DNA from: Patescibacteria group bacterium
GTDB taxonomy: Bacteria; Patescibacteriota; Minisyncoccia; Phycocordibacterales; UBA918
DNA: 64,000 nucleotides
Reading direction: 5' to 3'
Assembly (NCBI GenBank): GCA_019750255.1
Contig: JAIEOU010000009.1
Location: 5,497 to 69,496, forward strand
Position 1 is the first letter of the stretch, and every line of letters starts with the position of its first letter. The notes under the pieces are model-generated. The model saw nothing but the letters and a program-made list of their open reading frames with translations, was not told the DNA's origin and searched no databases. Of this stretch, positions 6,173-28,253 are shown piece by piece. The position numbers and the translations under genes were made by a program.

Positions 6173-6565
6173 TTACCAAATGATGAAGAGCTCCTCACCA
6201 CCGACCTGCTTTTCTTTAGCTTCCTCATTGGTGAGGATGCCAAGCGGGGTCGAAAGGATGAGATGTCCTTTACCAAACTTAACTTTGTGAATATTGGCGA
6301 CCTTGGTGTAGAGGCGACGACCAGGCTTGCTGATGCGCTTTACACCATTAATACGATGCGCGCCGCCGTTGTAGACGAGGGCAATCGAGAGCGTCTTTCC
6401 GACCTTCTTTCCCTGCTCCTTTACTTCACCGACATATCCAGCAGCCGAGAGCTTTAGAGCTACTGCCTGCTTGAGCTTACTGTACGGGAGTTCAACCTGC
6501 TTCTTTCCGACCATACCAGCATTCTTAAGCTGAATGATGAGGTCGCCGATAGCGTCGCTTACCAT
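6173..6565 (-). CDS. rpsH: 30S ribosomal protein S8
   Basis: 130 aa; [16 protein letters not shown]... with an S8-type C-terminus. Confidence 0.9.
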
Positions 6566-6744
6566 GATGACTTCTTAATGCCTGGTATATGTCCTTCGTG
6601 AGCAAGCTCGCGGAAGCAGATGCGGCAGATATCAAAATCGCGCATATACCCTCGCTTACGTGCACACAACTTGCAGCGTCGTACGACGCGGCAAGCAAAC
6701 TTCGGCGTACGCTGTGAGCGTACGATGATTGATGTTCGTGCCAC
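6559..6744 (-). CDS. rpsN: 30S ribosomal protein S14, zinc-binding type Z
   Basis: 61 aa; GTG start; C..C....C..C zinc ribbon ([10 protein letters not shown]...CRICFRE). Confidence 0.85.
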
Positions 6745-6868
6745 TGTATTTAGTTTTAGGGGTGGAGCCGTATCATGGAGAATCCATGACGTGCGCCGTA
6801 ATAATTCCGCATCAGAAACGGTGTTTCTAAGCGTACGGGTGGGTACCTTTTTAAGGAGAAATAAGAAG

Positions 6869-6950
6869 CACGTAGTGCGACTATATTTTCCTTATGCAAT
6901 CGCCTAAGCAGATTCGACCTTTAAGGGGAGAATCTGGTTGCAGCGACTTG
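6869..6950 (+). repeat. structured repeat element, copy A
   Basis: acgtagtgcgacTATATTTTccttaTGCAAtcgcctaa, then hairpin GCAGATTCGACCtttaaggggaGAATCTG, then gTTGCAgcgacttg. Inner and outer stems; 5' flank shared with copy C. Confidence 0.6.
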
Positions 6951-7029
6951 TGAGAGGCAGAGACCCCGACCGCGTAGGCGCAATACTACTAGAATAAGGT
7001 TATTTGTCAAGGATAAATACAGAGGCCGT

Positions 7030-7105
7030 AGGCCGACAATATTTTCCTTGTGCAATCGCCTAACTGTTTTCGACCCCAGAAGGAGAAAACAGTTGCGGCG
7101 ACTTG
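7030..7105 (+). repeat. structured repeat element, copy B (tandem to A)
   Basis: Same architecture as copy A, but the inner stem is CTGTTTTC...GAAAACAG. Every stem position differs from A while pairing is preserved (covariation). Loop cores TTCGACC and GGAGAA are conserved. Confidence 0.6.
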
Positions 7106-7453
7106 CCTGGGATATAAAAATAAGGAGGCCACCATTGCTTTCATCCGTCCTTGCGAGCCTCAGCGAAGCAATCCAAACAATAATCCTAACCCAAAGGCCA
7201 GGCCTTTGTAGCCCGAACCTAGGAAACCCTACTACGGAGGCCAGGTCTCATAGTAGGAACACGAGGCTATAATCCGAGAAATTCTTTCCCAGCACACATA
7301 AAACCCTAGTCTGTTCAATACTTTTCAAAGCGCCAGGAGTTCTCATTGGCGTGAGACGTAAGTACGTTTATACGAAACGCCTCTAAGAGCCCTAGTCCAG
7401 GCTAGCAATGACAGATATACTTTCTATAACGTTACTATCTAAATAAAAATTCT

Positions 7454-8107
7454 ATGGGTTATAAAGTCAAATTTACTGTACTTGCTACACTACTCCTATT
7501 TGCTGTAAACATAAGCCACGCAAGTAGTCATTCAGAAAATTTCTCGTTTGAAGTTAGCAGTAAAAAGGTCATGTCTGGATCACCAGTACTGCTCCAATGG
7601 GTCGCCCCAGAAGGTTCAATCTGTAATCTTAATGGTACAACGATTGAAAATAGGTACGTTGTTCGTCAAGACTATTATTTGACTGAGAACCCTATAGTGG
7701 ATACGCGATACACCCTTACGTGTAGCAACGGCTTGATTACAAGCAAAATTGTACAGAAAGTGAACGTGGTGCCCGAAAGGAAAAAATCACCCACTGTTAC
7801 CACATCCATCACAGACACAGTGATTTCATATGGTCCAGGAGGTAGGAATAAATCTATTACCGCGAATCTCAACTGGACTTCAACGAATGTAGAATCCTGC
7901 ACACTTAACCAATACTTTAATAACTTTAGGACGGTAAATTTTCTGGAAGGGAGCTCCACACTAGACACTCAAGGTGCACTGGGTATGAGAGTAAGCAATG
8001 GTTCTTTTAGTTCACCAACTGAACGAACGTATCTCATAACTTGCCAAAATAAAAATGGAGTTTCAGCAGGTTCTGAGGTGGTATTTAACTCATCAATTGA
8101 TCTCTAA
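7454..8107 (+). CDS. secreted tandem-repeat protein (signal peptide, two ~90-aa beta-rich repeats)
   Basis: N-terminal signal peptide (LATLLLFAVNISHASS). Internal duplication L.W....C.LN...TY.LTC.N..G appears twice. Markedly AT-rich compared with the surrounding DNA. Confidence 0.6.
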   Translation: MGYKVKFTVLATLLLFAVNISHASSHSENFSFEVSSKKVMSGSPVLLQWVAPEGSICNLNGTTIENRYVVRQDYYLTENPIVDTRYTLTCSNGLITSKIVQKVNVVPERKKSPTVTTSITDTVISYGPGGRNKSITANLNWTSTNVESCTLNQYFNNFRTVNFLEGSSTLDTQGALGMRVSNGSFSSPTERTYLITCQNKNGVSAGSEVVFNSSIDL

Positions 8108-8139
8108 TTCCCTACTCCAAAGAATGGGACTTCGTAGTC

Positions 8140-8409
8140 CTACCTGTAGACATCCTTTCTGTGTTTGATTGTTAATACAATCAGTACCACAATGCCTCCC
8201 TTACCATCGTAGGTAAAAACTACTCGATAGTCACCAATTCGGTATCGGTACTTCCCCGATAACCTCCCTTGCAGAGCTTTGGCCCGAGCCAGCGGTTCAG
8301 CTTGAGAAGCATTATCAGCTATCTTAAGTACAATTCTCTTAGCAATTAAGGGACTCAGCTTTTTTAACTGCTGAAGAGCATCATCTGAGTAGATGACCGT
8401 AGCGCTCAT
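8140..8409 (-). CDS. RelE/ParE-family type II toxin
   Basis: 89 aa; YRYRIGDYRVVFTYDG....IVVLIVLTIKHRKDVY matches the RelE/ParE signature. Confidence 0.8.
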   Translation of the reverse strand: MSATVIYSDDALQQLKKLSPLIAKRIVLKIADNASQAEPLARAKALQGRLSGKYRYRIGDYRVVFTYDGKGGIVVLIVLTIKHRKDVYR

Positions 8410-8414
8410 TGAGA

Positions 8415-8663
8415 TTATGTAATACCAAGTTTTTTAAACACTTCTTCTTGGGTGTGGAAATTACCCCGAACAACATTGGCTTCAGCTTTTACCACATCAG
8501 CAACAAAGGTATCGAGGTACTCATCGTCAACAAACGCTTTAATTTCAAACAACGGCTTGTTTCGATTCATAACAATATAACGAACATCACTCTTTCGGGC
8601 ACGCTTAGCATAATCAGAAATATTCTGACGAAAATCTTTTACTCCGATAAATTTAGTATTCAT
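8415..8663 (-). CDS. Phd/YefM-family antitoxin
   Basis: 82 aa, directly upstream of and abutting the toxin gene. N-terminus MNTKFIGVKDFRQNISDYAKRAR...YIVMNRNKPLFEI is Phd/YefM-like. Confidence 0.7.
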   Translation of the reverse strand: MNTKFIGVKDFRQNISDYAKRARKSDVRYIVMNRNKPLFEIKAFVDDEYLDTFVADVVKAEANVVRGNFHTQEEVFKKLGIT

Positions 8664-8841
8664 ATATTTAAAGTGTACACTTAAGTGTACACTTTTGTCA
8701 AGTATTTATTGAACAGTAGTTTCGAACCGAATCCAGCCCCTTCTCGTGTCTACACAGACTGAGTGCACTTCACCCGCTCCTGCAGCAATTCTTTCAGGCA
8801 GTAACAATCATTGACATCATTAGTCACAGTTGCGTTAATTA

Positions 8842-10137
8842 ATGTATATGCACTTCGGTCTACGGACGTCTGAAGTTACTCCCCAGCGAGATATTCGCTC
8901 TGAGCCTGATTCACCGTCCTCACTTAAGACACTACTCTCTGCGCCTGGCCCACTCTCCATCATTACACTTGTAGAAACCTGTCTTCGAGAGGCACACCAC
9001 CAACACGCTTCCGACATTCATATCGAACCAAACGAACACGCCATCCGTGTTCGTTTTCGTATTGACGGCATGCTCTGCGACATCGTCACCCTTCCACGCA
9101 CTATACATTCGGAAATAATTTCTCGTATTAAAGTACTCTCCCATCTGCGGACCGACGAGCACCAAGCGGCACAGGACGGCCGCTTTCGCGCAACTTTTGC
9201 CACCACTGCGGTTGATATACGCGTTTCGATTGCCCCGACCCATCATGGGGAAAATGCCGTACTGAGACTACTTACTGAACACGCCACCCCGCGCACACTT
9301 AGCACACTCGGACTACATGAGAACGATCAAGCAAAAATTGAGCGGGCGGTCGCCTGCCAGAGCGGCATGATACTGGCAACCGGGCCAACCGGATCGGGAA
9401 AGACCTCAACGTTATATACCCTTCTCAAGTTACTCAATCACTCAGAAATCTCTATCGTCACAATTGAAGACCCTATTGAGTACGCAGTAGCTGGGGTTAC
9501 CCAAATGCAGATCAACCCGAGGTCTAACCTCACTTTCGCCAATGGGCTGCGTACCGTCTTGCGCCAGGACCCCAACGTTATTATGGTTGGTGAAATTCGT
9601 GATGCCGAAACCGCTAACATCGCTATTAATACGGCTCTCACCGGACACCTCCTCCTCTCCACCCTCCATACGAATGACGCTGCCACCACACTACCTCGAC
9701 TGCTCGATATGGGGGTAGATGCCTATCTGGTAGCGTCAACAATAAACATTGCCATCGGCCAACGCCTTGTGAGAAAAATCTGCCTACACTGCCGCACCAA
9801 GCACACGCCCACTGAAGCCGAGACACGCCACCTTAAATTGTCCTCACACACAACAACTGAGAAGTACGAAAACGTACCAAACAAATTTTTTCACGGCGCT
9901 GGCTGCCCTGCCTGCAACCACTCGGGCTATGCCGGGCGAATTGGCATATACGAAGTCCTCGTCGTGTCACCTACCATTCGCGAAGCAATCTTACAACGAG
10001 CTTCAGCTGCGACCATACATACCATCGCTCAAAGTGAAGGCCTTACCTCAATGTTTGAAGATGGCTTACGAAAAGCCGCGAAGGGTGACACAACGATAGC
10101 GGAAGTCTTGCGCGTGGTTGGGACACCAATTTCCTAA
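8842..10137 (+). CDS. pilB: type IV pilus/T2SS assembly ATPase, GspE/PilB family, short form lacking the N1 domain
   Basis: Walker A GPTGSGKTST, Asp box VGEIRD, His box ALTGHLLLSTLHTN and tetracysteine motif CLHC...CPAC. True start codon uncertain. Confidence 0.85.
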   Translation: MYMHFGLRTSEVTPQRDIRSEPDSPSSLKTLLSAPGPLSIITLVETCLREAHHQHASDIHIEPNEHAIRVRFRIDGMLCDIVTLPRTIHSEIISRIKVLSHLRTDEHQAAQDGRFRATFATTAVDIRVSIAPTHHGENAVLRLLTEHATPRTLSTLGLHENDQAKIERAVACQSGMILATGPTGSGKTSTLYTLLKLLNHSEISIVTIEDPIEYAVAGVTQMQINPRSNLTFANGLRTVLRQDPNVIMVGEIRDAETANIAINTALTGHLLLSTLHTNDAATTLPRLLDMGVDAYLVASTINIAIGQRLVRKICLHCRTKHTPTEAETRHLKLSSHTTTEKYENVPNKFFHGAGCPACNHSGYAGRIGIYEVLVVSPTIREAILQRASAATIHTIAQSEGLTSMFEDGLRKAAKGDTTIAEVLRVVGTPIS

Positions 10138-10145
10138 AGCCCTAC

Positions 10146-11327
10146 ATGAAATCTCTTTTCATAATGATATGGAACTTTGTCCGGCCCCATGACCAGCCTC
10201 GGCCGGCGCCAGGAAATACCCCACCGCCCGGACCACCACCCACCGTTACTTCAGCACCAAGTTCCATACTTTTTGTTCGCTTCACCACCAAAGACCGGGT
10301 ACTCTTTGCCCAGCGCTTATCTTTTCTCCTGCGAGCGAATGTAAGTTTAGTTGAAAGTCTCACGCTCATTCATAATCAAACCAAATCACAGCGTCGACAA
10401 CATCTCTACGCTACCGTCATCTCAGATATTCAAGCTGGACACACGCTTTCAAACAGCCTCCGTAAGTACCAATCGTTATTTGGCGAGTTTACCATCAACA
10501 TAATCAACGTTGGTGAGCAGGTCGGTGCACTCTCAGAAAATCTCGCCTATCTGGCCGATGCGCTCGCTAAAAAACACGCACTGGGGCGCAAAGTACGCAG
10601 CGCCCTCATTTATCCTCTATTCATTTCAGTCACCACGCTCGGGGTAACGGGATTTCTCGTGATGTATCTATTCCCAAAAATCATGCCAATTTTTGTTTCA
10701 CTTTCGATTGATCTACCACCTACCACCCGAGCTCTCCTCGCACTTAGTGAGTTTTTACGCGCACACGGTGGTGCGACAGTTGTACTCGGATTATGTATCT
10801 GTGTAACTTTTCTTGTGCTACGCACCAAGATTACCTCTTTGCGATTTGCTACCGACCACCTCATACTGACCACTCCGGTCGCCGGCCCCATTGTCCGTTT
10901 GTATAATTGTGCGAACTTTTGTCGGACGCTCGCACTTTGTCTTCACTCTGGTATCAGTCTTTCTGAAGCCCTTACCATTACCGCACAGACGACTCCTAAC
11001 CTCGTCTTCAAACGGGCATACGGGGCGTTCGCGGAGTCTGTGGCACGTGGTGAAAAAATCTCTAGGGCGATGTCGTCGTATACTTCACTCTTTCCCGAAC
11101 TGCTTCCACAACTACTGCTAATTGGAGAAACAACCGGTACTCTATCTAAAACCCTAACGTATGTCACGGAACTGTACGATACAGAGGTTGATGAAGTAAC
11201 AAAGAATCTCTCAAGCACCATTGAACCGGTTCTCCTTCTCACCATGGGAGTGTTTATTGGGTTGATTGCGGTTTCCGTAATCGCACCAATCTACGAGGTT
11301 ACTCAGCACCTTAACCACTCTTACTAA
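10146..11327 (+). CDS. pilC: type IV pilus platform protein, GspF/PilC family
   Basis: 393-aa polytopic protein with two GspF repeats (KDRVLFAQRLSFLLRANVSLVESL...). Pro-rich N-terminus, so the start is uncertain. Confidence 0.8.
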   Translation: MKSLFIMIWNFVRPHDQPRPAPGNTPPPGPPPTVTSAPSSILFVRFTTKDRVLFAQRLSFLLRANVSLVESLTLIHNQTKSQRRQHLYATVISDIQAGHTLSNSLRKYQSLFGEFTINIINVGEQVGALSENLAYLADALAKKHALGRKVRSALIYPLFISVTTLGVTGFLVMYLFPKIMPIFVSLSIDLPPTTRALLALSEFLRAHGGATVVLGLCICVTFLVLRTKITSLRFATDHLILTTPVAGPIVRLYNCANFCRTLALCLHSGISLSEALTITAQTTPNLVFKRAYGAFAESVARGEKISRAMSSYTSLFPELLPQLLLIGETTGTLSKTLTYVTELYDTEVDEVTKNLSSTIEPVLLLTMGVFIGLIAVSVIAPIYEVTQHLNHSY

Positions 11328-11341
11328 TTCCCCAAGCAATC

Positions 11342-11794
11342 ATGGCCACTACTAGCGGATTTACTCTCATTGAACTGCTCATCGTCATGAGCCTGCTTGC
11401 GGTGATTGCAGCGTTTAGTGCCCCTTTAAGCTTAACGAGTTTGTCACACTCTACCCTGCTTCAAGAGCGTGATGTGTTAGTTTCTCTGGTCCTCATGAAC
11501 GCAAGATCTGCTGCACTAGTGAATAGAGACCGCTCGGCTCAGGGTGTTTTTATAGATCAAACAAATAGACAGTACGTGCTTTTTAATGGCAGTACTTACA
11601 CGCAAGGAGCGCCGAGTAACCGCCTCATACCCTTTATTAGCCAATCGGTTGCGGTCAGTAACAGTGGTGGCGATACCATTATTTTTGCCCCTCACACCGG
11701 AACCATTATCAAGGGTGCCGGTACCATCAGCGTCGGGAGCGGTATTGCTACTCATACTGTTACCACAAACGACGTCGGGATGATTGACTGGTAA
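11342..11794 (+). CDS. type IV pilin-like protein (class III signal peptide)
   Basis: MATTSG|FTLIELLIVMSLLAVIAAF: canonical G-F-T-L-I-E prepilin cleavage and methylation motif. Confidence 0.8.
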   Translation: MATTSGFTLIELLIVMSLLAVIAAFSAPLSLTSLSHSTLLQERDVLVSLVLMNARSAALVNRDRSAQGVFIDQTNRQYVLFNGSTYTQGAPSNRLIPFISQSVAVSNSGGDTIIFAPHTGTIIKGAGTISVGSGIATHTVTTNDVGMIDW

Positions 11795-11797
11795 CGT

Positions 11798-13357
11798 ATG
11801 CATACGAACCCTACCTACAGCGAAGTTTCACCCTCGACGCACGCTGCCGGCTTTTCTACCATTGAAATACTTTTATCTTTTACCGTCGGCACACTGTTTC
11901 TCACCGCTGCCCTCATGCTGGTAGTGAGTGGACCTGGGCTAAATACCCGGTATTCACTAGACAGCAGTAACACCCTTGTGCTCGATGCGGCGCTTGATAC
12001 TCTTGGACTCTCTCTACTCACCCAAAGCCTTACCTCTACCACCGCTGCCCTACAAACTCAGTGGCACCGATCGATTTCTGGTTCAATTCGAATCGACCAA
12101 GGCTATGCAAAAAACCCACCATACATAACTGACATATCACCATGCCTTAAGGTTGTCACTAATGAAATAAGTTGGCTCCTGGGTGGTGGGCGTGTCCGTA
12201 ACAGCAGCCTCAGTGGAGTAGTGAGTAACGAACAGATTACTGGGGCTCTTGGAGGCGACTGCGATAGTGTACCGACGAGCGCAGACTGGTTTGCCCCACA
12301 GGTGCTTAGTCGGCACTCAATCACGTCCGGCACTCCGGTAGCACTCGACGTTCTAGGCGGGGCGGTCTACCTAAGTGACGCTGCCGGCATGTTACACATA
12401 ATTAACTTACAAGGTAATGCTATTAATGAGAACGGTGATTTTATTACTCCCCCGTTTGCAGCTGGTGCTACTTTGTTTGATGTTGATGTGGCAGACCACG
12501 TGGACCCCACAACCGGGGACCGTCACCGGTACGCATACACCGTACGGAACAGCACCTCAGACCAGTTGCAAGTAATTGACGTAGACAATCACACCGCACC
12601 CACGAGCACACCAGGAATGATAGTTACGTTTGGTGGCGCTAATCCTCCTCGCGGCAGCTTTCCCCAGGGATGGAGGCTCACCTACTATGACCGCATGGTC
12701 TACGCGCTCTCGCGTGAGACCGCCGGCTTTGAGTTTCATATTTTCGACGTCGGCGACCCTACTCGTCCCCGCGGGGTCGGACCCGGTTTCGAGGTAAACG
12801 GTACCGCAAACGACATCGCAGTTACTGATGTTTTTTTACCAACCACAACACAGCGAATAGCTATCTTGGGAACCGAACGTTCGGCACACGAAATTATGGT
12901 ACTGAACGTATCAAACCCACTCACACCGACGCTCATCACGAGCCTCGACCTACCCACGACGTTTGATGTGCGCTCCCTCTACCTTATTGGTAATCGTCTC
13001 TACGTCGGCCGCAATCGTACAACCGGCGGACCTGAATTGCTTGTATTTGAAATGACCTACAGCTCGACCTTACCCCTACAGTTAACTCTCACGCAACTTG
13101 GTACGGGAGTCGAAATTGGCGCCGATGTCACGAGCATCAAAGTAAGTGGGGTACAGGCATTTATTACCACCGCCAACGCAAATGACGCCTTCCAAATTTT
13201 TACTATAGAAAAGCCGACAGAAAACATAACCAGGATTGATACAGCCCCACTGCGACTCAGCGGCACTTTTCCGGCCGGGCTCGATTATTCCTCCCCATAC
13301 GTCTTTGTAGTAAGTAATGCCCTTCAGTCACTGCAGGTTATTCAGAGCTCACCATAA
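11798..13357 (+). CDS. large pilin-like protein fused to an LVIVD-repeat beta-propeller (candidate pilus tip/adhesin)
   Basis: N-terminus AAG|FSTIEILLSFTVGTLFL is a prepilin motif. C-terminal 350 aa carry repeated hydrophobic-x-(V/I)-x-(D/N)-(V/I)-(S/D/G)-(N/D)-P-x-x-P units (EIMVLNVSNPLTP, HIFDVGDPTRP, QVIDVDNHTAP, FQIFTIEKPTE), typical of LVIVD repeats. Confidence 0.6.
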   Translation: MHTNPTYSEVSPSTHAAGFSTIEILLSFTVGTLFLTAALMLVVSGPGLNTRYSLDSSNTLVLDAALDTLGLSLLTQSLTSTTAALQTQWHRSISGSIRIDQGYAKNPPYITDISPCLKVVTNEISWLLGGGRVRNSSLSGVVSNEQITGALGGDCDSVPTSADWFAPQVLSRHSITSGTPVALDVLGGAVYLSDAAGMLHIINLQGNAINENGDFITPPFAAGATLFDVDVADHVDPTTGDRHRYAYTVRNSTSDQLQVIDVDNHTAPTSTPGMIVTFGGANPPRGSFPQGWRLTYYDRMVYALSRETAGFEFHIFDVGDPTRPRGVGPGFEVNGTANDIAVTDVFLPTTTQRIAILGTERSAHEIMVLNVSNPLTPTLITSLDLPTTFDVRSLYLIGNRLYVGRNRTTGGPELLVFEMTYSSTLPLQLTLTQLGTGVEIGADVTSIKVSGVQAFITTANANDAFQIFTIEKPTENITRIDTAPLRLSGTFPAGLDYSSPYVFVVSNALQSLQVIQSSP

Positions 13358-13362
13358 TACGT

Positions 13363-13899
13363 ATGCCACTTCATCACGATCATCAACAAGATGGAGTTAC
13401 TCTCCTTGAAGCCATCATTTACGTCGCTCTCTTTAGTGCTCTCACTACCGGTGTTTTGATGAGTGTCTATCCCCTCTTTACCGGAGCCGCTCGTCATACC
13501 GAACTTATTGCAACCCATAGTGACATAGTGTTTATTTTGAAAAAAATTGAACAAACACTTAGCGACAGTATCACCACACCATCCTCCACAATTCTTGTAC
13601 CGCCTTCCGGCCAAAGCGCCGAAACACTCGCTATACAAAGCACGACTGGCAGCATATTTACTTTTACTATTGATACAGCCCCGTCTGGCTGCACACCGCC
13701 GCGTCTCTGCGCCACCCTTACCCTCAAGACCAATAGCGGCCCGGCATTATCGCTTAATAGCAGGAGGATTCACATTAGTGATTTTACGGTGACTCACACT
13801 GAGCAAGGACTCGATTGCTCGAGTGTTCGCTGTCTCGACATATCATTTGCAGCTAACGGACAAGCGGTCGGACCACTCCGTTACTATCTCCGTTTCTAG
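13363..13899 (+). CDS. minor pilin-like protein
   Basis: QQDG|VTLLEAIIYVALFSAL: prepilin N-terminus with Glu at +5. Confidence 0.65.
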   Translation: MPLHHDHQQDGVTLLEAIIYVALFSALTTGVLMSVYPLFTGAARHTELIATHSDIVFILKKIEQTLSDSITTPSSTILVPPSGQSAETLAIQSTTGSIFTFTIDTAPSGCTPPRLCATLTLKTNSGPALSLNSRRIHISDFTVTHTEQGLDCSSVRCLDISFAANGQAVGPLRYYLRF

Positions 13900-13901
13900 T
13901 T

Positions 13902-14303
13902 ATGAAAAATCATTTCGCACCCCGAGGATTCATAGCCCTTCTAACCATGATAATAATTTCATCGGTGTTGCTCGTCACTACTCTGTCTCTAGCACAATTT
14001 GGCCTTACCCATCGCTATTTCATACTTGATCTTGAACATAAGTCCGTGAGTACTCATTTAGCTGAGGCGTGTGTCCACATCGCTCGCGTCCTCATCATGA
14101 ATAGCCAGAGTGATAGCCTGACCTTTCCCCACCCCTTTCCCGTTCACCAAGAGTTCTGCACGATCCATTTAATAACCCGAGCGGGCACGACCAGCGCCGT
14201 AGAAACAGAGGGAACGCATGAAGGTATATCGACACACTACTCCGTCACCGTCGACAACAACAACGGTAGCTTTCTCTCCTGGGAGGAGATAATTAACCCC
14301 TAG
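13902..14303 (+). CDS. pilin-like hydrophobic-N-terminus protein (no Glu+5)
   Basis: APRG|FIALLTMIIISSVLLV is pilin-like but lacks the +5 Glu. Operon context only. Confidence 0.4.
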   Translation: MKNHFAPRGFIALLTMIIISSVLLVTTLSLAQFGLTHRYFILDLEHKSVSTHLAEACVHIARVLIMNSQSDSLTFPHPFPVHQEFCTIHLITRAGTTSAVETEGTHEGISTHYSVTVDNNNGSFLSWEEIINP

Positions 14304-14410
14304 CTATAAACAGAACTATTAATCCAAAAAATTTTAAGCACCCCCTACCGTATATAATTTAGATAACGGAAAGATGCTTCACGCAACTATACTTATCTAT
14401 AATTTATTGT

Positions 14411-14899
14411 ATGAAAAATCACACACAGAGGTCCACCCAAGGATTTACGTTGATTGAGATTCTTATCGTTATTGCAATCTTGGCTGTGCTGGCCGCCATC
14501 GTACTGGTCGCCATTAATCCAGCCCGCCAATTTCGTCAGGCCAATAATGCCCAACGCGTGAGTAACGTTAATGCTCTATTAAATGCCGTTAGCCAATACA
14601 CCGTCGACGAGAAGGGCGCCATTCCGTCCGAAATTGAAGCTGATGCTGACGAGATTAATGGCACGAGTGGTAGCGACCACGCTGATCTCTGCGCACTACT
14701 AGTACCAAAGTATCTCCCCGCCCTACCGGCCGACCCAAGCAAGAGTGACCAAAGTATTACCGAAGACAAGTGCGGTAGCGCATACTCAACCGGCTATGAA
14801 ATTAAAGCTGAGAACGGTCGCGTCGTCGTCTCGGCACCGCTCACCGAGGATGAGGATACCGGGGCGATAGCGAGTGACATCATTAGCGTAACGCGCTAA
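14411..14899 (+). CDS. pilA: type IVa major pilin candidate
   Basis: STQG|FTLIEILIVIAILAVLAAIVLVAI: textbook T4a pilin N-terminus; 162 aa. Last gene before the terminator. Confidence 0.8.
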   Translation: MKNHTQRSTQGFTLIEILIVIAILAVLAAIVLVAINPARQFRQANNAQRVSNVNALLNAVSQYTVDEKGAIPSEIEADADEINGTSGSDHADLCALLVPKYLPALPADPSKSDQSITEDKCGSAYSTGYEIKAENGRVVVSAPLTEDEDTGAIASDIISVTR

Positions 14900-14967
14900 T
14901 AGGACCAACCGCGTAACTCGCCCCACGGCTGAGACGCCGGTCTCTACATCCGCATCGTCAGCTAACA

Positions 14968-14998
14968 CGAAAAAACACCCATTTGGGTGTTTTTTCGT
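14968..14998. terminator. bidirectional intrinsic terminator
   Basis: aaaaaACACCCatttGGGTGTtttttt. Confidence 0.75.
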
Positions 14999-15011
14999 AA
15001 CCAGAAGACAG

Positions 15012-15323
15012 CTACACAAAAAAGGAATATAGCACCTCTGCTTTTGAAACCCGTTCAAGACACTCCTCCTTCATCTGCTTGTGCTTTTGATTAACCTGCC
15101 TATCCGTGTTGGCTGGTAGACACTCACCCACCATTTCACCCAACACATAGGTAGTGCCATCAATAATGAAACTAAACACCGCCTCATGCACCAACCCCTC
15201 TTCACGTAAAGATGCTTCAGCTTCAGTACGAAATTGTGTTGTGAGTTCGACACACCACTCTCTCCAAGCTGCCTCTTTACCTGATTTCACCCTGAATACA
15301 TTGGCCACGGTTTTACTACTCAT
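15012..15323 (-). CDS. hypothetical protein (DUF6176-like pattern, weak)
   Basis: 103-aa ORF flanked by terminators on both sides. VFRVKSGKEAAWREW...EG...E.VF is loosely DUF6176-like. Confidence 0.4.
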   Translation of the reverse strand: MSSKTVANVFRVKSGKEAAWREWCVELTTQFRTEAEASLREEGLVHEAVFSFIIDGTTYVLGEMVGECLPANTDRQVNQKHKQMKEECLERVSKAEVLYSFFV

Positions 15324-15375
15324 ATATCTTTACCACCCATCATATGTCTTACCAAATAAAACTCAATGTGCATGA

Positions 15376-15412
15376 TAACAAAACCGCCACCCTTTCGGGT
15401 GGCGGTTTGTTG
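15376..15412 (-). terminator. intrinsic terminator closing the rpsS-rplE unit
   Basis: On the minus strand: CAAACCGCCACCCgaaaGGGTGGCGGTTTTGTT. Lies downstream of rplE. Confidence 0.7.
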
Positions 15413-15482
15413 TTGCTGCTTCTTCAAGCCTGATTCAAAATTTTCAGATACCAGGAGCCAAGGATGAGCAGAAATAAGGAAC

Positions 15483-15551
15483 ACGTAGTGTGACTATATT
15501 TTGCTGAAACAAAAGCTTGGTTGTATTCGACTTAATTAAGAGAATAGAACC
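15483..15551 (+). repeat. structured repeat element, copy C (right flank of the island)
   Basis: acgtagtgtgacTATATTTTgc matches the copy A flank at 20 of 22 positions. Hairpin GGTTGTATTCGACttaattaagaGAATAGAACC has conserved TTCGAC and GAGAAT with a new covarying base stem. Confidence 0.55.
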
Positions 15552-15645
15552 GTAGCTTTTGAGCGAGGACAGGAGGCGTACATATTGTACGATAACTGTC
15601 CGAGCGAAGTATGCGACAAAGTATCTGGAGATTTTGGGCAGGCGA

Positions 15646-16182
15646 CTACGCGGCCTGGAGAGGTACTCCGATGTGCCGCAAGAAAGCCTCAGCTTCCTTC
15701 TTCCCTTTCGCAGTAGTCACAATCGTGATACCGAGTGGGAACACATCCTTGATTTCTTCTTCACCACACTCCGGGAAAATAGTGTGCTCTTTGATACCGA
15801 TTGAGTAGTTACCCATAGCATCGATAGAGGAACGCTTAAGACCCTGGAAATCGCGCGTCTGTGGGAGCGCAAGGTGAACGAGCTTATCGAGGAAGTGGAC
15901 CATACGAGCGCCGCGCAAGGTAATCTGGTAGCCGATGATATCACCCTTACGTGACTTAAACGACGCCACTGACTGCTTGGCTGGACGTGGTGCCGCCTTC
16001 TGACCAGTGATAAGGGCGAGACGATCGCGGATGAGCGCGAGCTTTGCCTTATCCTGAACGCGGCCGGTACCGACCGAGATAACCACCTTCTCTACCTTTG
16101 GTGCCTGCATCACATTTTTGTAACCAAACTCGTCTTTGAGGGACGCGTAGGCTGACTTGATGCGTGTATTAACTGATTCCAT
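15646..16182 (-). CDS. rplE: 50S ribosomal protein L5
   Basis: 178 aa; NVMQAPKVEKVVISVG and ITLRGARMVHFLDKL are L5 motifs. Confidence 0.9.
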   Translation of the reverse strand: MESVNTRIKSAYASLKDEFGYKNVMQAPKVEKVVISVGTGRVQDKAKLALIRDRLALITGQKAAPRPAKQSVASFKSRKGDIIGYQITLRGARMVHFLDKLVHLALPQTRDFQGLKRSSIDAMGNYSIGIKEHTIFPECGEEEIKDVFPLGITIVTTAKGKKEAEAFLRHIGVPLQAA

Positions 16183-24026: not shown

Positions 24027-27000
24027 TTATTGCTGGGTGCCGAGCAGCAGGCGTGTCTGCGGTCCCACGATGCCAAGGGCATCAAGGGCATGGGCAGCCT
24101 GGAATGATCGTACCGCAGCTTCGGTAACCGGTCCGAAATAACCGGTAGCCTCCCCACTAAAGTAGCCAAGACGCTTGAGGGCTGCTTGCAGGACACGGAC
24201 CTGTTCGCCTGAAGAGCGAAGTGAGAGACGGTCAGATATCGTGAAGCGTATGTCGTTGATTCCTAATACAGATCCACTCGCAGGAACATTCGGAAAACGA
24301 GCCGGTGTAAAATCAGTGAGCACCTTGTTAACGAACGTTAACGTCTCACCATTCTTGAATGTCAGTACTACGTTCGAGCCGACCTGAGTCAACGCTGCCC
24401 TTAGCTCTGTCCAGTTATTAAAGGCTCCACTTGAAAGGATTATTTCGTCCGGACGAGTGCTTCCTGTAGCAAAACCGATAATAGTGTCTGATCCATTACC
24501 TGATGAAACTGTAATTTCTTCAGCCTGGTTTCTCGCAACAATCGTATCGTTTCCACCCATACCATTAATCCTGAACCTTGTATCAGATGTATTTTGTGAG
24601 CCAACCAAAATATTTGCACTCGCATTGCCTTCGATGGTTAAGTTAGACGTCGCGTCTCCGCCATAGATAATAGTATCGATGGCGCTTGGAAGCGTGTACA
24701 CTCCCCAGCCGTGACGGGTAATTACGGCAGTGTTAGCGCTTACATCCACTCCCTCTATGACTTCAGAACCTCCGACATAGAACACATCGTTACCGCCACC
24801 ACTAACGAACGTAGCTCCTCCACCAAATTCGACAGCTTCAAACACATCGTTCGCGGTAGTACCAACAAGACGTGGCACCCAGGCACCGCGCTCCGCAGCA
24901 ATCGTGACGGTTGGCAGCGTGAGGGGATTGAGCAGGTTCTGACTTGTCCCTGCCAAGGTAATGGTGTAGCTGGTGGGAGTTACAATAGTTGGTTCTACAC
25001 TCGTTCGCGGGTCGCTTACTTGTTTCCAAGCACCATTACTATATTCATACCAGACGCTTGTGTTGTTGAGCGTATAGAGCTTTCCGCCATTAAGCACATG
25101 AAGTTCAACACCTCCACCTCCGACAGCCGATGCTCCGTTAAGAAGAACCAGATTACCGCCGGGTACTGTCTGGGTGCTAAACGACCACGTTCCTGCGGCT
25201 GTAGTTAGACTACCACCACTGGACACTGAAATGACTGCTCCATCTGGACTCAATCCAGGAGTAGTAGGTGGCGGGAGTGAGGTTTCTGGGTTTATCGTTC
25301 GACTCCACGTCGCAGCAGCTACATCCCGGAGATACCAGACACCCTTACTGTTGCGTGCGTACAATTTTCCACCATTGAGTACCACCATCCGATTCCCGGT
25401 CAACAGAGCGGATTTACCATTCAGGTTAATCCTCCAACCACCACTTATTCTACTAGTACCGAACGACCACGTTCCTTCAGGAGTTATCAGGGTAGAACGT
25501 GAACCTCCACCGACCGACGTACCATCAGAACTGATTGATACGGTTGAGGTTGGTGCTGTGCTGGCTAACTTGAAGTAACACGCCTTAACAACGCCTGGCA
25601 ACGGATCACCAAACACTGCATTGGTGCAGGCGGTACTGGCTGTTATTGAGCGGTAATTGAAGGCTCCGTTAGCACCATAAGCAACACTTGCGGTACCGGC
25701 AAACGAACAGGTACCTCCCTCCTCTGCACACTTGGTATACCCCGTAGGACCGCCAGCATCTGCTTGTGCTACTGGTGCAGATACAGCTACTACAACAGAC
25801 TTCTGTGCGGAGCCGCCAGTGCCAGTGCAGGTGAGTGTATAGGTGGTTGTAGTTTCTGGAGAAAGGCTTTGTGAACCAGCAGTCGCTCCAGCGGTAAAGC
25901 CGGTACCGGTACACGCAGTGGCGTTCGCGCTTGACCAAGTCAGCGTTGTAGTTTGACCCCTAACAATACTAGAGGAAGTGAGACTCAGCGTTACGGTCGG
26001 TACCAAGGTTGGAATTGGGGATGGAGTAGGTGTGGATGCACTACTTTTTGTCATGTACATATCAACACTGTAACCATCAAGCCCAGAATCATAATCGACA
26101 CTCCACCAATTGTACCCACCAGCACTGATCGGACCAGAGCGAAGCGTTCCAAGGGCTCCAAAAGGCTGCGTGCCGAGGATGGTACCGTTAGCGGTCGCAC
26201 GGACATTCGTACCAGTGGTTAGACTAATTCGGTCACCAGTAATGAAACCTAGTGCTGGCAGAGCGGGGAGTGGAGCTGGTTCTGGAATTGGAGTTGTCGG
26301 TACAGAAATCATTCCTGAGCGGCGTGGAGTAACTCTAAACTGAAAATCTTTTTGATACGACTCAACATCAGTAAATTTTGGTTTGAGGGCCAACATTTTG
26401 TCGTAGGTCTGCAAGGCTTCACTAGACCCCGTGACATTATAGACGTTTGCGAGAGACATAAGACCACTTGGACCGTAGGTGCCTTCCCCACCATCGTACT
26501 CCACGTTTAAGTTCGAGATTCCTAACCACGTAGTAACCGGCTTACCATTAGCGTACATGGCAAAACCGTAGTTAAAGCCCACTAATGGATTGTTCATTTT
26601 ATTGTAGCGGTTGATAACGTAGTTAGACATTATCCCGACCACCTGTTTTGCTTTGGCACTACCACGATTTGCAGACGCAGCCAAAGAACTCAACAGATAA
26701 TCTTGTTGCCACGGCTTAACGGCCGGAGGAAAATCACCGTCTACACCCGTGAAGTAGCCACGCGCCTCACCTTGTGCAGGACCCTCGGCGGCGGCTCGAC
26801 TAATTAAGTGGTCAAGATTATTGTTTAGAATTTTTTGCCAATAATTTTTAGCTGTCGTTCCATCAGGATTAGCCCACGCTGCCTCATCAATTTGTCGAAG
26901 ATCCCAGCCAGCACCTCTAACCTGGTTCATATCATGAACAACCAAACCAAGTCCATCTTGCCGAGGCGCATTCCACCCAGCCATCACTGTCCAAGATGCT

Positions 27001-28253
27001 TGGGCATTTATTTGATCAAGATGATAGCGGCTACCAGTAAACAGGTACGGAATGAAACTAAGCGCAGGCTGATGGGCATTTTCAGGTGACCACACATCAT
27101 CTTTCGTGAATTGAGTTAGAGTTGGGTAGCCTCGACCATCAGCCCAGAGGGTCGGATATTTATCAAGAGAAAGATAATCCTTAGTGGTTGGGTCGTAGTA
27201 GTGCCACGGCACACTCCCTGCGGCATCGGCTTGAGCGAGCGCTGACTTGGCCGCAGTATCACTTTGAGTCAGCAACCACGCACCATTTGTGCCGGTAATT
27301 GGACCAATGTCCTGGCGTCCACCAGTCCCAGGCATGTAGGTAGCGATACCTCCAATTCCTAGTGGCTCATAGGTATTACTAGGCATGTGGTTACTATCAA
27401 CCCCAAATGATGTTTCGAAGTTGAGAATTGCACCTGTAGACATAAGGTACGGGATATCACGCTGCACATTCACCCGCGTCTCTTGCCCGGTACTGTAAAT
27501 CATCTTGTGCCAGGTTTGATACTGGTGGTGGGTGAGACTGCCACTGTTGTACACCGTCGAACCATTCTGGGCGATAGTGGCCGTGTAGTTTAAAGTGTCT
27601 CCACTACTCGTCATTGCATGATCATTGTTGAAGTGCACATCAGTCGTGTACGTACCATCAGCAAACTTCGAGACGTCGAATACAAGGCGCATTGATGAGA
27701 CAACCGGTACCTCAAACCGACCTTCAGTTACCACTGGCCCTTGGCGCCAGTAGGTAACCCGTCCCGCAGTGAGCTCAGTCGCAAGCAGCTTGGCGGCATC
27801 AAACGTATAGGTATTACTAGAAGTTTTCAGAGTCACGACCACAGAGTAGTTCGGCATGGTAGCGAGCGAGAGTGGAGTACCACTTTGGGAAGCAGGATTC
27901 AGCATGGCGTTGCTGCTTGAGTTGGCCGCAATACTCGGTGCCAGCATGGTGACGACACCAAACCGGACCGAGCCGTCGGGATACTTGGTCTTAACGTCGA
28001 TTTGGGTAGGGACATTATTTCCTCGTACTTCCGCGACTACTCCTGAATTCCCGGGAAGATCCCCGGCCACGAAGGCCTGCCCCATCTGCACTGGCCCGGC
28101 TGGGATACTGCTTGAGGTAGGGTTTTGGAGGATAAAACCGACAAGCTCGCCAGTAGCAGGCTGCGGGATGGTTGGTAGGTTAATTATTTGTGCGGCAGCG
28201 AGCGCTGGCGCCATGAACAGCAGACAGACAGCTCCAATAAGTCTTGAAATCAT
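24027..28253 (-). CDS. giant secreted multidomain surface protein with C-terminal peptidoglycan-binding domain, RTX-like Ca-binding repeats, Ig-like domain and central alpha-helical (putative glycan-active) module
   Basis: Start set at the ATG preceding signal peptide MISRLIGAVCLLFMAPALAAAQ; the ORF-track start is an upstream GTG. C-terminus GEQVRVLQAALKRLGYFSGEATGYFGPVTEAAVRSFQ...GIVGPQT is PG_binding_1. GGGNDVFYVGG, GMGGNDTIV and SGNGSDTII are RTX-like. Duplicated ~80-aa GTWSF...LNGGKLY domain. Thr-rich Ig-like linker. Confidence 0.8.
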   Translation of the reverse strand: MISRLIGAVCLLFMAPALAAAQIINLPTIPQPATGELVGFILQNPTSSSIPAGPVQMGQAFVAGDLPGNSGVVAEVRGNNVPTQIDVKTKYPDGSVRFGVVTMLAPSIAANSSSNAMLNPASQSGTPLSLATMPNYSVVVTLKTSSNTYTFDAAKLLATELTAGRVTYWRQGPVVTEGRFEVPVVSSMRLVFDVSKFADGTYTTDVHFNNDHAMTSSGDTLNYTATIAQNGSTVYNSGSLTHHQYQTWHKMIYSTGQETRVNVQRDIPYLMSTGAILNFETSFGVDSNHMPSNTYEPLGIGGIATYMPGTGGRQDIGPITGTNGAWLLTQSDTAAKSALAQADAAGSVPWHYYDPTTKDYLSLDKYPTLWADGRGYPTLTQFTKDDVWSPENAHQPALSFIPYLFTGSRYHLDQINAQASWTVMAGWNAPRQDGLGLVVHDMNQVRGAGWDLRQIDEAAWANPDGTTAKNYWQKILNNNLDHLISRAAAEGPAQGEARGYFTGVDGDFPPAVKPWQQDYLLSSLAASANRGSAKAKQVVGIMSNYVINRYNKMNNPLVGFNYGFAMYANGKPVTTWLGISNLNVEYDGGEGTYGPSGLMSLANVYNVTGSSEALQTYDKMLALKPKFTDVESYQKDFQFRVTPRRSGMISVPTTPIPEPAPLPALPALGFITGDRISLTTGTNVRATANGTILGTQPFGALGTLRSGPISAGGYNWWSVDYDSGLDGYSVDMYMTKSSASTPTPSPIPTLVPTVTLSLTSSSIVRGQTTTLTWSSANATACTGTGFTAGATAGSQSLSPETTTTYTLTCTGTGGSAQKSVVVAVSAPVAQADAGGPTGYTKCAEEGGTCSFAGTASVAYGANGAFNYRSITASTACTNAVFGDPLPGVVKACYFKLASTAPTSTVSISSDGTSVGGGSRSTLITPEGTWSFGTSRISGGWRINLNGKSALLTGNRMVVLNGGKLYARNSKGVWYLRDVAAATWSRTINPETSLPPPTTPGLSPDGAVISVSSGGSLTTAAGTWSFSTQTVPGGNLVLLNGASAVGGGGVELHVLNGGKLYTLNNTSVWYEYSNGAWKQVSDPRTSVEPTIVTPTSYTITLAGTSQNLLNPLTLPTVTIAAERGAWVPRLVGTTANDVFEAVEFGGGATFVSGGGNDVFYVGGSEVIEGVDVSANTAVITRHGWGVYTLPSAIDTIIYGGDATSNLTIEGNASANILVGSQNTSDTRFRINGMGGNDTIVARNQAEEITVSSGNGSDTIIGFATGSTRPDEIILSSGAFNNWTELRAALTQVGSNVVLTFKNGETLTFVNKVLTDFTPARFPNVPASGSVLGINDIRFTISDRLSLRSSGEQVRVLQAALKRLGYFSGEATGYFGPVTEAAVRSFQAAHALDALGIVGPQTRLLLGTQQ

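Follow-up and report, generated by a model that had tools for sequence, protein, structure and literature searches.

The window, the whole 64-kb stretch of Patescibacteria DNA that was analyzed, contains five units of a two-hairpin repeat, three of which (A, B, and C) lie on the plus strand and two (D and E) on the minus strand (Table 1). The sequence-only reading had listed the first four, all of which were confirmed at the positions that it gave; E was absent from it. Each unit is ~100 nt long and is made up of two independent hairpins, H1 (~50 nt) and H2 (~55 nt). Copies A and B lie upstream of a gene at 7454-8107, which the same reading had described as encoding a secreted protein, and copy D is the one H1 copy that follows fusA. 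A truncated third H1 follows copy B, and the junction between the two is also seen among the units of tandem arrays elsewhere. No tRNA was found in the window by ARAGORN.

Table 1. Units of the two-hairpin repeat, their hairpins, and adjoining terminators in the 64-kb window
Feature	Positions	Strand	Composition or evidence
Unit A	6850-6952	+	H1 + H2
Unit B	7006-7106	+	H1 + H2
Unit C	15463-15566	+	H1 + H2
Unit D	32576-32475	-	H1 + H2; 102 nt
Unit E	40834-40731	-	H1 + variant H2
Copy A, H1	6850-6898	+	R1 covariance model, 55.5 bits, E 4e-10
Copy A, H2	6893-6952	+	Fold z -3.45; row of alignment A2
Copy B, H1, degenerate core (AAAUACAGAG / GACAAUAUUUU)	7006-7054	+	R1, 32.0 bits, E 1e-4
Copy B, H2	7049-7106	+	Fold z -5.10; row of alignment A2
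Third H1, truncated 5' half (AAAAAUAAGGAGGCC), directly 3' of copy B	7116-7130	+	AATAAGGA match
Copy C, H1	15463-15511	+	R1, 45.4 bits, E 9e-8
Copy C, H2, degenerate tip with single A opposite GA	15506-15566	+	Fold z -5.77
Copy D, H1 by model	32578-32529	-	R1, 48.5 bits
Copy D, complete unit	32475-32576	-	Fold z -9.78; limits from filled/empty comparison
Terminator, canonical hairpin-plus-U, ~20 nt 3' of copy D	32418-32453	-	Sequence
Copy E, H1, compensatory change in AU helix (AAAUUAGGAG / CGACUAAAUUU)	40785-40834	-	R1, 33.9 bits, E 4e-5
Copy E, variant H2	40731-40789	-	GCAGUCGC..UUUU-GA-GC AUCAU AGC-GA-AAAA..GCGACCUGC
Terminator, canonical, ~45 nt 3' of copy E	40658-40688	-	Sequence

In H1, the 5' half of which had previously gone undescribed, AAAUAAGGAG is followed by a small covarying hairpin and then by CGACUAUAUUUU. 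A variable lower stem leads into a conserved AU helix (AAAUA/UAUUU), in which one A is bulged, and then into a 3x3 loop with tandem G.A (N-G-A / G-A-C; GGAG/CGAC); beyond the loop lie a G-C pair and a short, variable hairpin whose cap is mostly a GNA/ANA triloop. In copy A, the layout is UUUAAGGAG-AAAUAAGAAG-GCAC GUA GUGC-GACUAUAUUUU-CCUUA. H2 is a long covarying hairpin with a C-GA-C/G-GA-G motif adjoining the loop, as in H1 (UGCAAUCGCC..CAGAUUC-GA-CC UUUAA GG-GGA-GAAUCUG..GCGACUUG in copy A). The TATATTTT box, which had been taken for a separate element, is really the 3' arm of H1, and the spacing, which had been put at 17 to 22 nt, is exactly 23 nt from GACTATATTTT to TTCGAC in all copies. 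C-GNA-G and C-AAA-G triloops with tandem G.A dominate among the loops, with few GNRA loops and no UNCG loops. Triloop and tandem G.A chemistry is typical of stable single-stranded DNA hairpins. The kink-turn, the sarcin-ricin loop, the UAA/GAN motif, and hairpin-ribozyme loop B were compared by eye only and were rejected because the AU stretch pairs as a Watson-Crick helix, in which changes are compensatory, and no 3-nt bulge lies beside the G.A; loop B had been considered because UAUAUUUUAC resembles GUAUAUUAC. A role for the UAA in AAAUAAGG as the stop codon of upstream ORFs was also rejected, since 3 long ORFs end in that frame versus 5 and 6 in the other two.

As the sequence-only reading had held, the repeat is not a product of chance. 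The pattern TTCGAC-N4-14-GAGAA occurs 4 times against 0.41 expected, the four stretches have fold z values of -3.5, -5.1, -5.8, and -9.8, and the covariance model scores the upstream module in the four copies at 32 to 55 bits (E, 1e-4 to 4e-10), compared with a best match of 25 bits in 274 kb of unrelated DNA. The compensatory stem changes listed for the four copies are correct except for one mismatch, in C, and selection on the structure is borne out by double-sided changes in 14/14 H2 stem pairs. In H2, 93.5% of cells are paired, versus 76% in shuffles. Covariation scores are 0.51 for H2 (shuffles, 0.20, with 0/500 reaching the observed value; slid controls, maximum of 0.13) and 0.370 for H1 (shuffles, 0.138, 0/500; slid controls, maximum of 0.148). 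Compensatory changes are found even inside the "invariant" AU helix, both in copies outside the search-pattern selection and in copy E, in which the box variant AAAUUA...UAAAUUU has both strands of the helix changed. The H2 variant of copy E is also present in L038 and L083. Since G.U far exceeds A.C (~49:6 in full units and 65:18 in H1), the strand originally proposed is the folding strand. The folds are under selection and strand-specific.

This two-hairpin repeat is undescribed and is confined to Parcubacteria-type ultra-small bacteria. More than 100 homologues were found, all of them from Parcubacteria/Paceibacteria-type genomes and metagenomes. A scan of one genome per species gave 18 true matches, all in CPR MAGs, along with one chance match; a metagenome scan gave at least 120 stretches, part of which were chance matches without the hairpin; and the covariance model identified 105 H1 copies in the 85 loci on which it was run. 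Viral contigs yielded chance matches only, and a phage origin was rejected. No match to Rfam 15 was found at the gathering score in the 64-kb window, in agreement with the earlier statement that the element matched no named family. At E values up to 10, there were just sub-threshold miRNA-hairpin look-alikes around A, B, and D, and a search of 19 related loci with Rfam returned tRNAs only. Nothing relevant was found in the literature on the core sequences or on CPR repeats. Across the family, H1 is the universal module and H2 is one among several partners, with H1 also joined to several distinct conserved downstream RNAs, such as a ACCCCGUUAAAAGUCC class ending in a terminator. Tandem arrays are frequent among the units. 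The core sequence is conserved across genomes with just ~85% EF-G identity, a range wider than that of typical REP families.

The copy number and position of the units differ between strains of 98% EF-G identity. In one such strain, L170, fusA is followed by three copies of H1, compared with one in the window; a 92% relative has the E-site copy only, and relatives at 91% and 89% have no H1 in ~20 kb. In L170, a 102-nt copy (8703-8804) that is identical to D at 98/102 positions lies within the last fusA codons, between GAAGAGGA and GGCCTAAG, and the same site is empty in the window. This insert provides a stop codon; the terminal part of a coding sequence can be replaced upon insertion. Because this copy occupies another site, both ends of D are fixed, and the unit ends given by the filled and empty sites, TGTCTAG... 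and ...GTGTTTGTA, are not inverted repeats. The comparison of GAAGAGGA/GGCCTAAG in the window with GAAGAGGA[102 nt]GGCCTAAG in L170 limits any target duplication to ≤1 nt. The flanks of D in the window are GAAGAAGA and AGCCTAAG, and those of the two D-type sites are similar, being alike over ~17 nt. Units are also found nested within the H2 tips of other units (L170 and L036), and degenerate remnants are present upstream of aldolase genes. Among the three candidates raised by the sequence-only reading, the small MITE-like element is the best fit in terms of behavior, since filled and empty sites differ between 98% strains, near-identical copies occur elsewhere, and units are nested. However, the units have neither terminal inverted repeats nor a target duplication, and a DDE-derived MITE is rejected on both counts. 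On either side of some tRNA-linked units lies a direct repeat of 10 nt, CTCCACAAAA (≥9/10 matches in 11/95 units versus 2 expected).

The other two candidates fared less well. A relative whose homologue of the protein is 77% identical carries neither A nor B at the orthologous gene, which argues against a leader of the secreted-protein gene. Orientation relative to neighboring protein genes is random, and neighboring and downstream genes are heterogeneous and belong to no consistent class, at odds with a gene-specific cis-regulator or a conserved cis-regulatory leader. Orientation is independent of gene direction and of GC skew: it is divided 30:31 with respect to skew (forward strand G-rich in 30 loci and C-rich in 31) and 33:31 with respect to the majority coding strand, and the window itself has uniform skew yet carries A to C on one strand and D and E on the other. 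It is fixed, however, relative to tRNA 3' ends and terminators. H1 lies on the same strand after the tRNA 3' end in 20/21 pairs within 400 nt and starts 2 to 5 nt past the tRNA end in 10 tRNA-H1 pairs, some of them inside tRNA clusters. A canonical terminator is found on the H2 side in 24/89 units and on the H1 side in 3 to 6 of 89.

These tRNA and terminator polarities are explained by a transcribed RNA unit no less well than by a target preference. The copies may represent functional small RNAs or 3'-end RNA modules, transcribed forward behind a tRNA or ORF or from a start of their own and ending at the next terminator, an explanation that we regard as possible but clearly short of probable. 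In this scheme, H1 would be a shared protein-binding 5' domain (with its tandem G.A and SD-like AAGGAG), specificity would reside in H2 and the other partners, and the copies would have arisen via ordinary duplication. Besides the two polarities, the strand-specific fold, the separate terminators of D and E, and the joining of H1 to several conserved downstream RNAs support such RNAs. So does copy E, which has a syntenic counterpart at 3487-3535 in L171 and which differs from the syntenic copy of the 92% relative by many compensatory changes while the tips are conserved; changes of this kind suggest that selection maintains the fold at its present site, something for which a purely selfish element would have no need. 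However, promoter-like signals upstream of H1 are not enriched (17% versus 15% in shuffles, with no positional peak), six copies begin right after the U-tract of a terminator, and the stems are fully paired and thus offer no guide-like loops. The differences between 98% strains, the nesting, the copy in the fusA codons, and the density of 5 copies per 64 kb in the window are also difficult to reconcile with this role, for which we know of no partner protein.

A further possibility is that the unit is a promoter, with TATATT in GACTATATTTT as the -10 element, a start a few bases downstream, H2 as a 5' leader or short RNA, and the H1 palindrome as a promoter DNA feature or a terminator of incoming transcription. 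TATATT is a good -10 element, and all of its variants (TATGTT, TATACT, TATAAT, TAAATT, and AATATT) keep A at position 2 and T at position 6. Units also occur upstream of terminators as well as directly after terminators (the six copies mentioned above) and tRNA genes, some of the co-oriented genes downstream of them are highly expressed (aldolase, in two cases, as well as DnaK, pilin, and L16), and no other promoter is detectable upstream. Nevertheless, TATATTTT covaries with AAAUA and G.U is tolerated on one strand, neither of which is required by a duplex promoter. The distance from AAATAAGGAG to TATATT ranges from 9 to >15 nt with the length of the inner hairpin, a variation of >6 nt between the two conserved boxes that leaves no -35 partner, and the hexamer is preceded by GAC, not TGn. 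A sigma-70 promoter with a -35 element at 16 to 18 bp or a TG extension is rejected on these grounds, and the general promoter with a structured 5' leader that had been suggested is not supported, although TATATT might still act as a promoter with a -10 element only. A promoter scan found none at D, about half of the units face the 3' end of a convergent gene, and the absence of A and B upstream of the orthologous gene in a relative also weighs against a promoter, which we consider unlikely.

The layout of H1 (an A-tract, a hairpin, and UAUAUUUU) is reminiscent of a terminator, and the reverse complement of H1 was flagged by the terminator scan. H1 could conceivably punctuate transcripts as a protein-dependent terminator, an RNase III-like endonuclease site, or a self-cleaving site, setting the upstream 3' end and the downstream 5' end. 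It has a total helix length of ~22 bp, which suits RNase III; it abuts tRNA ends and stop codons and, in L078, lies between S3 and L16; and its outer stem is paired to both the trailer and the acceptor end of the tRNA. However, separate canonical terminators follow D, E, and many other units, which indicates that H1 itself is not the transcript end, and mismatches lie beside the U-tract, where the G.A/G.A/N.C loop parts the stable stem from it. Many copies are antisense to both neighboring genes, units are neither enriched in convergent spacers nor depleted in divergent ones, some being found in the latter, and known ribozyme models gave no match. Taken with the points in its favor, this makes punctuation a doubtful explanation.

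The best reading is that of a structured, mobile REP/RPE-like element and not a gene-specific switch. We assign a probability of roughly 0.5 to a lineage-specific family of ~100-nt noncoding structured repeats that duplicate and insert at new sites in Parcubacteria/Paceibacteria-type CPR genomes. The element would be mobilized as a single strand, with the hairpins and G.A motifs as the recognition features for a putative enzyme. Insertion would favor purine/A-rich sites beside gene ends and may be aided by pairing of an internal segment with the flank. After insertion, the unit would be cotranscribed with its neighbors, its hairpins may serve, like those of REP or Correia elements, as processing sites or 3'-end hairpins, and an outward -10-like TATATT may be carried along. 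Counting against mobility, besides the tRNA and terminator polarities, the in-place changes of copy E, and the breadth of core conservation, are two further observations: among the ~30 window ORFs scanned, there is no transposase, reverse transcriptase, or Nop-domain gene, and the left flanks (GAGGA, GAAGA, AAGCG, and GGGAC) share no common target motif.

The pairing with flanks raises a related idea. In the clean cases, the segment between the hairpins is complementary to a flank already present in the empty site (UUAGGC/GCCUAA at both D-type sites and CCCUUAU/AUAAGGG at the E site), and in tRNA-linked units, the pairing partners are the trailer and acceptor end of the tRNA. The element may be a protein-less module that picks its insertion site by base pairing, which would suggest a guide-directed mobile nucleic acid with a putative enzyme, or else an RNA that processes itself, such as a new small ribozyme or an intron-like element, in which the two G.A loops dock with each other; we think this improbable.

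The prevailing view of CPR/Patescibacteria genomes is that they are extremely streamlined with little mobile DNA, and to our knowledge, almost nothing is known of their noncoding repertoire. The element described here is structured and widespread, and its conserved core, an AU helix and a tandem G.A loop, is sharply delimited. Copies occur within ribosomal-protein operons, at the 3' ends of tRNAs, and even among the final codons of fusA, and they turn over between strains of 98% EF-G identity. It provides a ready covariance-model marker for the annotation of CPR genomes, explains variable spacers and possible assembly breaks in MAGs, and offers a natural set of filled and empty sites for strain typing. 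It also gives a handle on a motif-recognizing enzyme or an RNA-level function, and, if the flank pairing is functional, the family would represent a new kind of guided insertion.

Palindrome-associated elements derived from IS200/IS605 move by single-strand "peel and paste" transposition. The CPR unit resembles them in its subterminal hairpins, strand-specific fold, precise filled and empty sites, lack of inverted repeats and target duplication, and internal segment complementary to the flank. It differs from them in having no fixed 4- to 5-nt target, no replication-strand orientation (30:31 against GC skew), a longer flank pairing of 6 to 10 nt, and no Y1 transposase among the ~30 window ORFs. 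TIGR arrays share with it tandem stem-loop units, little sequence conservation, and occurrence in CPR genomes (PMC12045711). However, TIGR units have two unpaired 8- to 12-nt spacers flanked by box C/D and adjoin a Nop-domain Tas gene (TIGR-Tas; PMC12045711), whereas the CPR stems are fully paired, the copies are mostly solitary, and no PF01798-type match was found among the ORFs scanned; a TIGR array was rejected.

The REP, RPE, CIR, and Correia families offer published precedents for such behavior: their members are small and structured, occupy intergenic as well as intragenic positions, and in some cases have no known transposase (PMC3733652, PMC2229807). The Correia/NEMIS elements of Neisseria are small mobile repeats that are cotranscribed with their neighbors, as is predicted for the CPR unit; they form long RNA hairpins (RNase III substrates in Neisseria), can carry promoter-like -10 boxes, and, like the CPR unit, are defined by the comparison of filled and empty sites (PMC2229807). 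Their 24-bp terminal inverted repeats, TA target duplications, and IHF site are all lacking in the CPR unit. REP/BIME elements (GTAG- or CGTC-tagged; PMC3733652) are likewise short imperfect palindromes in many copies, mostly intergenic and downstream of coding regions but sometimes inside genes, plausibly transcribed as RNA hairpins, and conserved in the hairpin rather than in the exact stem sequence; some families (the CGTC type) have no known transposase, and the Y1 transposase domain of RAYT was not found in the ~30 window ORFs. However, they are 20 to 40 nt long, whereas the CPR unit is ~100 nt long with two different hairpins, bears no GTAG or CGTC tag, occurs in direct tandem rather than in inverted pairs, and has a conserved core that spans many genera. 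The RPEs of Rickettsia and the CIRs of Caulobacter/Brucella are unrelated to the CPR unit in sequence and do not have its fixed relation to tRNA 3' ends and terminators, and RPEs have terminal inverted repeats and are usually in-frame protein-coding inserts, whereas the CPR insert provides a stop codon. In other respects, these are similar elements: structured repeats of 100 to 150 nt in small or host-dependent genomes, with no known transposase, whose insertion sites may be intergenic or lie within coding sequences (compare the end of fusA in L170), and the RNA models of CIR, like the CPR unit, consist of two independent stem-loops without terminal inverted repeats (PMC2229807).

The four repeat stretches described in the sequence-only reading are present in the window at the positions it gave, and alignment of the copies confirms that the stem differences it listed are compensatory. 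The loop-proximal motif TTCGAC-N4-14-GAGAA occurs 4 times (0.41 expected), and the four stretches fold with z scores of -3.5, -5.1, -5.8, and -9.8 relative to shuffled sequences. In every copy, TTCGAC lies at a distance of exactly 23 nt from the conserved box, GACTATATTTT, rather than the 17 to 22 nt reported. Upstream of this box lie a conserved AGAAATAAGGAG and then a small hairpin with a different stem in each copy (GCAC/GUGC, GGCC/GGCC, ACAC/GUGU, and GCCG/CGGC). The repeat is a unit of ~100 nt with an upstream hairpin, H1 (~50 nt), and a downstream hairpin, H2 (~55 nt), the latter being the one first noticed. A search of Rfam 15, the comparison suggested at the outset, gave no match around the copies at the gathering score or with E up to 10.

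A covariance model of H1, run on the window with all filters off, identified five copies, namely, A to D and a new copy, E; the best model score in 274 kb of unrelated DNA was 25 bits. Copy E has a compensatory change within the AU helix of H1 and a variant H2 that is also found in two homologous loci (L038 and L083), and its own terminator lies behind the unit. Copy D is followed by a terminator, the 54-aa ORF, a second terminator, and tuf.

Repeat copies and neighboring features (window coordinates, except in the last line)
Feature	Position	Strand	Remarks
Copy A	6850-6952	+	
Copy B	7006-7106	+	
Copy C	15463-15566	+	
Copy D	32576-32475	-	
Copy E	40834-40731	-	
H1 of copy E	40834-40785	-	Covariance model, 33.9 bits
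S14 gene	6559-6744	-	
Interruption of spc operon	6744-15646		~9 kb
Gene with 77%-identical ortholog	7454-8107		
T2SSE/PilB-type ATPase	8842-10137		
rplE	15646-16182	-	
1437-aa ORF	24027-28340	-	Between S10-operon genes and tuf
54-aa ORF	32318-32154	-	fusA-tuf spacer; strong Shine-Dalgarno sequence, own terminator
114-aa ORF	40309-40653		
GAGTATATTTT	40624-40614	-	Near copy of H1 3' box, rest of hairpin absent; within or upstream of 114-aa ORF
Lysine-rich micro-ORF (MAKGTDMRKEKKKPKKDKGKLGGL)	40882-40808	-	End falls within H1 of copy E
Small RNase H/RVT_3 domain protein	50450-50869	-	Sole nucleic-acid enzyme of that kind among ORFs scanned
H1 copy in homologous locus L078	7776-7827 (of L078)		Between S3 and L16 genes, inside S10 operon; stop of S3 frame is UAA of AAAUAAAGAG

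By Pfam, the copies lie in a minus-strand ribosomal-protein region (L24, L5, S14, S8, L6, EF-G, and EF-Tu), with a 9-kb plus-strand block containing type IV pilus genes between L5 and S14. The EF-G matches a protein of a "Patescibacteria group bacterium" contig at 100% identity and Kaiserbacteria EF-G at ~85%. The block that interrupts the spc operon, mostly on the opposite strand, encodes an unknown 217-aa protein, a ParE-like toxin pair, the ATPase, pilin-like N_methyl proteins, and DUF6176. Other insertions (PIN/MazE and DUF2103) are found in the S10 operon of relatives, and the fusA-tuf spacer among relatives ranges from about 120 to 1351 nt, with varied small ORFs.

In the metagenome set, the 4 to 8 nt before AAATAA are complementary to the 4 to 8 nt after TATATTTT, forming an outer stem of H1 that covaries (e.g., aagc/GCTT, gtaaga/TCTTAC, and cgacac/GTGTCG). 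Across 76 sequences picked by the inner hairpin and not by the outer stem, the H1 fold is 80.6% paired, compared to 66.8% in shuffles, and the covariation score is 0.370 versus 0.138 (0 of 500 shuffles as high; slid controls, <=0.148). The search patterns themselves account for part of the apparent invariance of AAATAA and GACTATATTTT; only the secondary model matches are unbiased. Among model-found copies outside the exact-pattern selection, compensatory changes occur within the "invariant" AU helix, where one pair changes from A:U to G:C, U:A, or G:U and the adjoining pair changes from U:A to C:G or U:G. Thus, the "TATATTTT box" is the 3' strand of a helix. The constant unpaired part of H1 consists of a bulged A and a 3x3 loop, N-G-A opposite G-A-C, which contains two adjacent G.A mismatch pairs (tandem G.A) and in which N varies freely against the invariant C. 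The inner-hairpin caps are mostly triloops (C-GUA-G, 8; C-GAA-G, 6; C-AAA-G, 5), with few GNRA loops and no UNCG loops among the caps examined.

The long stem of H2 has double-sided changes in 14 of 14 pairs across 28 full units, with 93.5% of cells paired (76.0% shuffled) and a covariation score of 0.510 versus 0.197 (0 of 500 as high; slid controls, <=0.128). Its tip (UUC-GA-CC, loop, GG-GA-GAA) shares the C-GA-C/G-GA-G tandem G.A with H1, reversed relative to the loop. G.U/U.G cells outnumber A.C/C.A cells by about 49:6 in the full units and by 65:18 in well-defined H1 pairs, indicating that the strand originally chosen is the one that folds. Stable single-stranded DNA hairpins are characterized by GNA triloops and tandem G.A pairs, which are possible in RNA too; thus, the fold is no proof of RNA.

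Scanning one genome per species for exact pattern matches returned 19 loci, 18 of them true homologs, all from Parcubacteria, Paceibacteria, Kaiserbacteria, or "Saccharibacteria"-labeled MAGs; the 19th, from Paenibacillus, is a chance match. The upstream module alone (AAATAA-N-RAG, N9-14, GACTATATTTT) matched at least 120 metagenome stretches, with 129 occurrences in metagenome and viral loci, although some of the matches listed are due to chance and lack the hairpin. Since H2 follows the module in only ~10 of the matches listed, H1 is the universal module and H2 is one partner among several. The covariance model of H1 found 105 copies in 85 loci, counted per locus rather than per genome in a sample of MAGs and metagenome contigs. 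Directly after H1, ACCCCGUUAAA is common to several H1 classes. In two metagenome loci (L129 and L143), a long perfect palindrome (AACCCYGUUAAAU...) comes after H1, and past it the other strand carries an inverted H1-like sequence in which the A- and U-tracts have changed places (UUUUUAAGGAG..GACUAUAAAAAU).

Orientation relative to neighboring protein genes looks random. Based on simple ORF calls, of the units for which both neighbors were called, 19 run antisense to the two genes and 12 run sense to them; convergent spacers hold 8 and divergent ones hold 5. In 30 loci the forward strand is the G-rich one and in 31 the C-rich one; it is the majority coding strand in 33 of 64. Co-oriented downstream genes are mixed (aldolase [twice], formyltransferase, DnaK, pilin, L16, thioredoxin reductase, ABC transporters, and unknowns). 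Identical strains (L178 to L180) also carry copies A and B; upstream of the 77%-identical ortholog of the nearby gene, both copies are missing. This absence and the mixture of downstream genes exclude a gene-specific leader, which the sequence-only reading had considered. By E. coli-type consensus rules, sigma-70-like promoters are not enriched upstream of H1 (17% versus 15% shuffled); -10-only promoter activity of TATATT and a role in RNA punctuation are possible, less well supported explanations.

The fusA loci of relatives, scanned with the H1 model, reveal differences in copy number. Three H1 copies follow fusA in L170 (EF-G identity, 98%), compared to one in the window; L171 (92%) has one copy, syntenic with E, and L172 (91%) and L173 (89%) have none in about 20 kb. 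Alignment of the fusA-tuf spacers shows that L170 has a 102-nt unit within the last fusA codons, flanked directly by GAAGAGGA and GGCCTAAG, at a site that is uninterrupted in the window. This insertion, seen in one assembled contig, supplies a new stop codon and duplicates at most 1 base of target. The unit is identical to copy D at 98 of 102 positions; of the four that differ, two compensate for each other as a pair within the inner hairpin. Copy D itself, flanked by GAAGAAGA and AGCCTAAG, is 110 nt farther along; at its position, L170 has a different unit, nested in the tip of an E-type H2. Such nesting, with degenerate remnants, is also found upstream of an aldolase gene in L036 and L030. 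Together, the data show a double-hairpin unit that is under selection and specific to one strand; it duplicates and inserts precisely, nests within other units, and decays, irrespective of gene orientation.

Copy E and its L171 counterpart occupy the same place, after the conserved lysine-rich micro-ORF and before an ABC transporter. Between the two copies, all three helices show many compensatory substitutions and the tips are constant, in spacers that cannot be aligned, which suggests either in-place selection for the fold or repeated insertion at one site. The micro-ORF (counterpart in L171, MAKGRDMRKEKKKPKKDKGK*) may encode a real small protein, because the differences are mostly synonymous. 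In L170, E is missing and its left flank, GATAAGGGT, remains; this flank is complementary to CCCUUAU within E. Likewise, UUAGGC of the D-type unit is complementary to GCCUAA in the right flank, which predates the unit, at each of the two D-type sites. In some units, H2 is followed by a 10-nt direct repeat of the 5' flank; 11 of 95 units match at >=9 of 10 positions, versus 2 expected.

H1 starts 2 to 5 nt behind a tRNA gene in at least 10 loci. Of the 21 cases in which a tRNA and H1 lie within 400 nt of each other, 20 have both on one strand, several of these within tRNA clusters. In tRNA-linked units, the outer stem pairs with the tRNA trailer, discriminator, and last acceptor bases. By E. 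coli-type rules, 24 of 89 units have a canonical terminator hairpin on the H2 side, at a distance of up to 250 nt, versus 3 of 89 (reverse strand) or 6 of 89 (forward strand) on the H1 side. Because of these fixed polarities and the in-place compensation at E, a role as a transcribed RNA, either a 3'-end module or a small RNA, is the main rival to the mobile double-hairpin unit.

No mobilizing enzyme was found among the ~30 window ORFs scanned, so that any mechanism of movement is one we infer rather than observe. The small MITE-like element proposed from sequence agrees with the mobile-repeat behavior; however, MITEs are defined by inverted ends and duplication, both absent from the unit. The unit also lacks the tag of REP/RAYT systems, with no RAYT found among the ORFs scanned, and the fixed target and replication-strand bias of IS200/IS605 derivatives. 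Its behavior is that of the small structured repeats REP, RPE, CIR, and Correia elements (PMC3733652, PMC2229807). With this behavior and without the class-defining features, the repeat falls outside any named family, and we file it as a newly recognized relative in kind of REP, RPE, CIR, and Correia elements.
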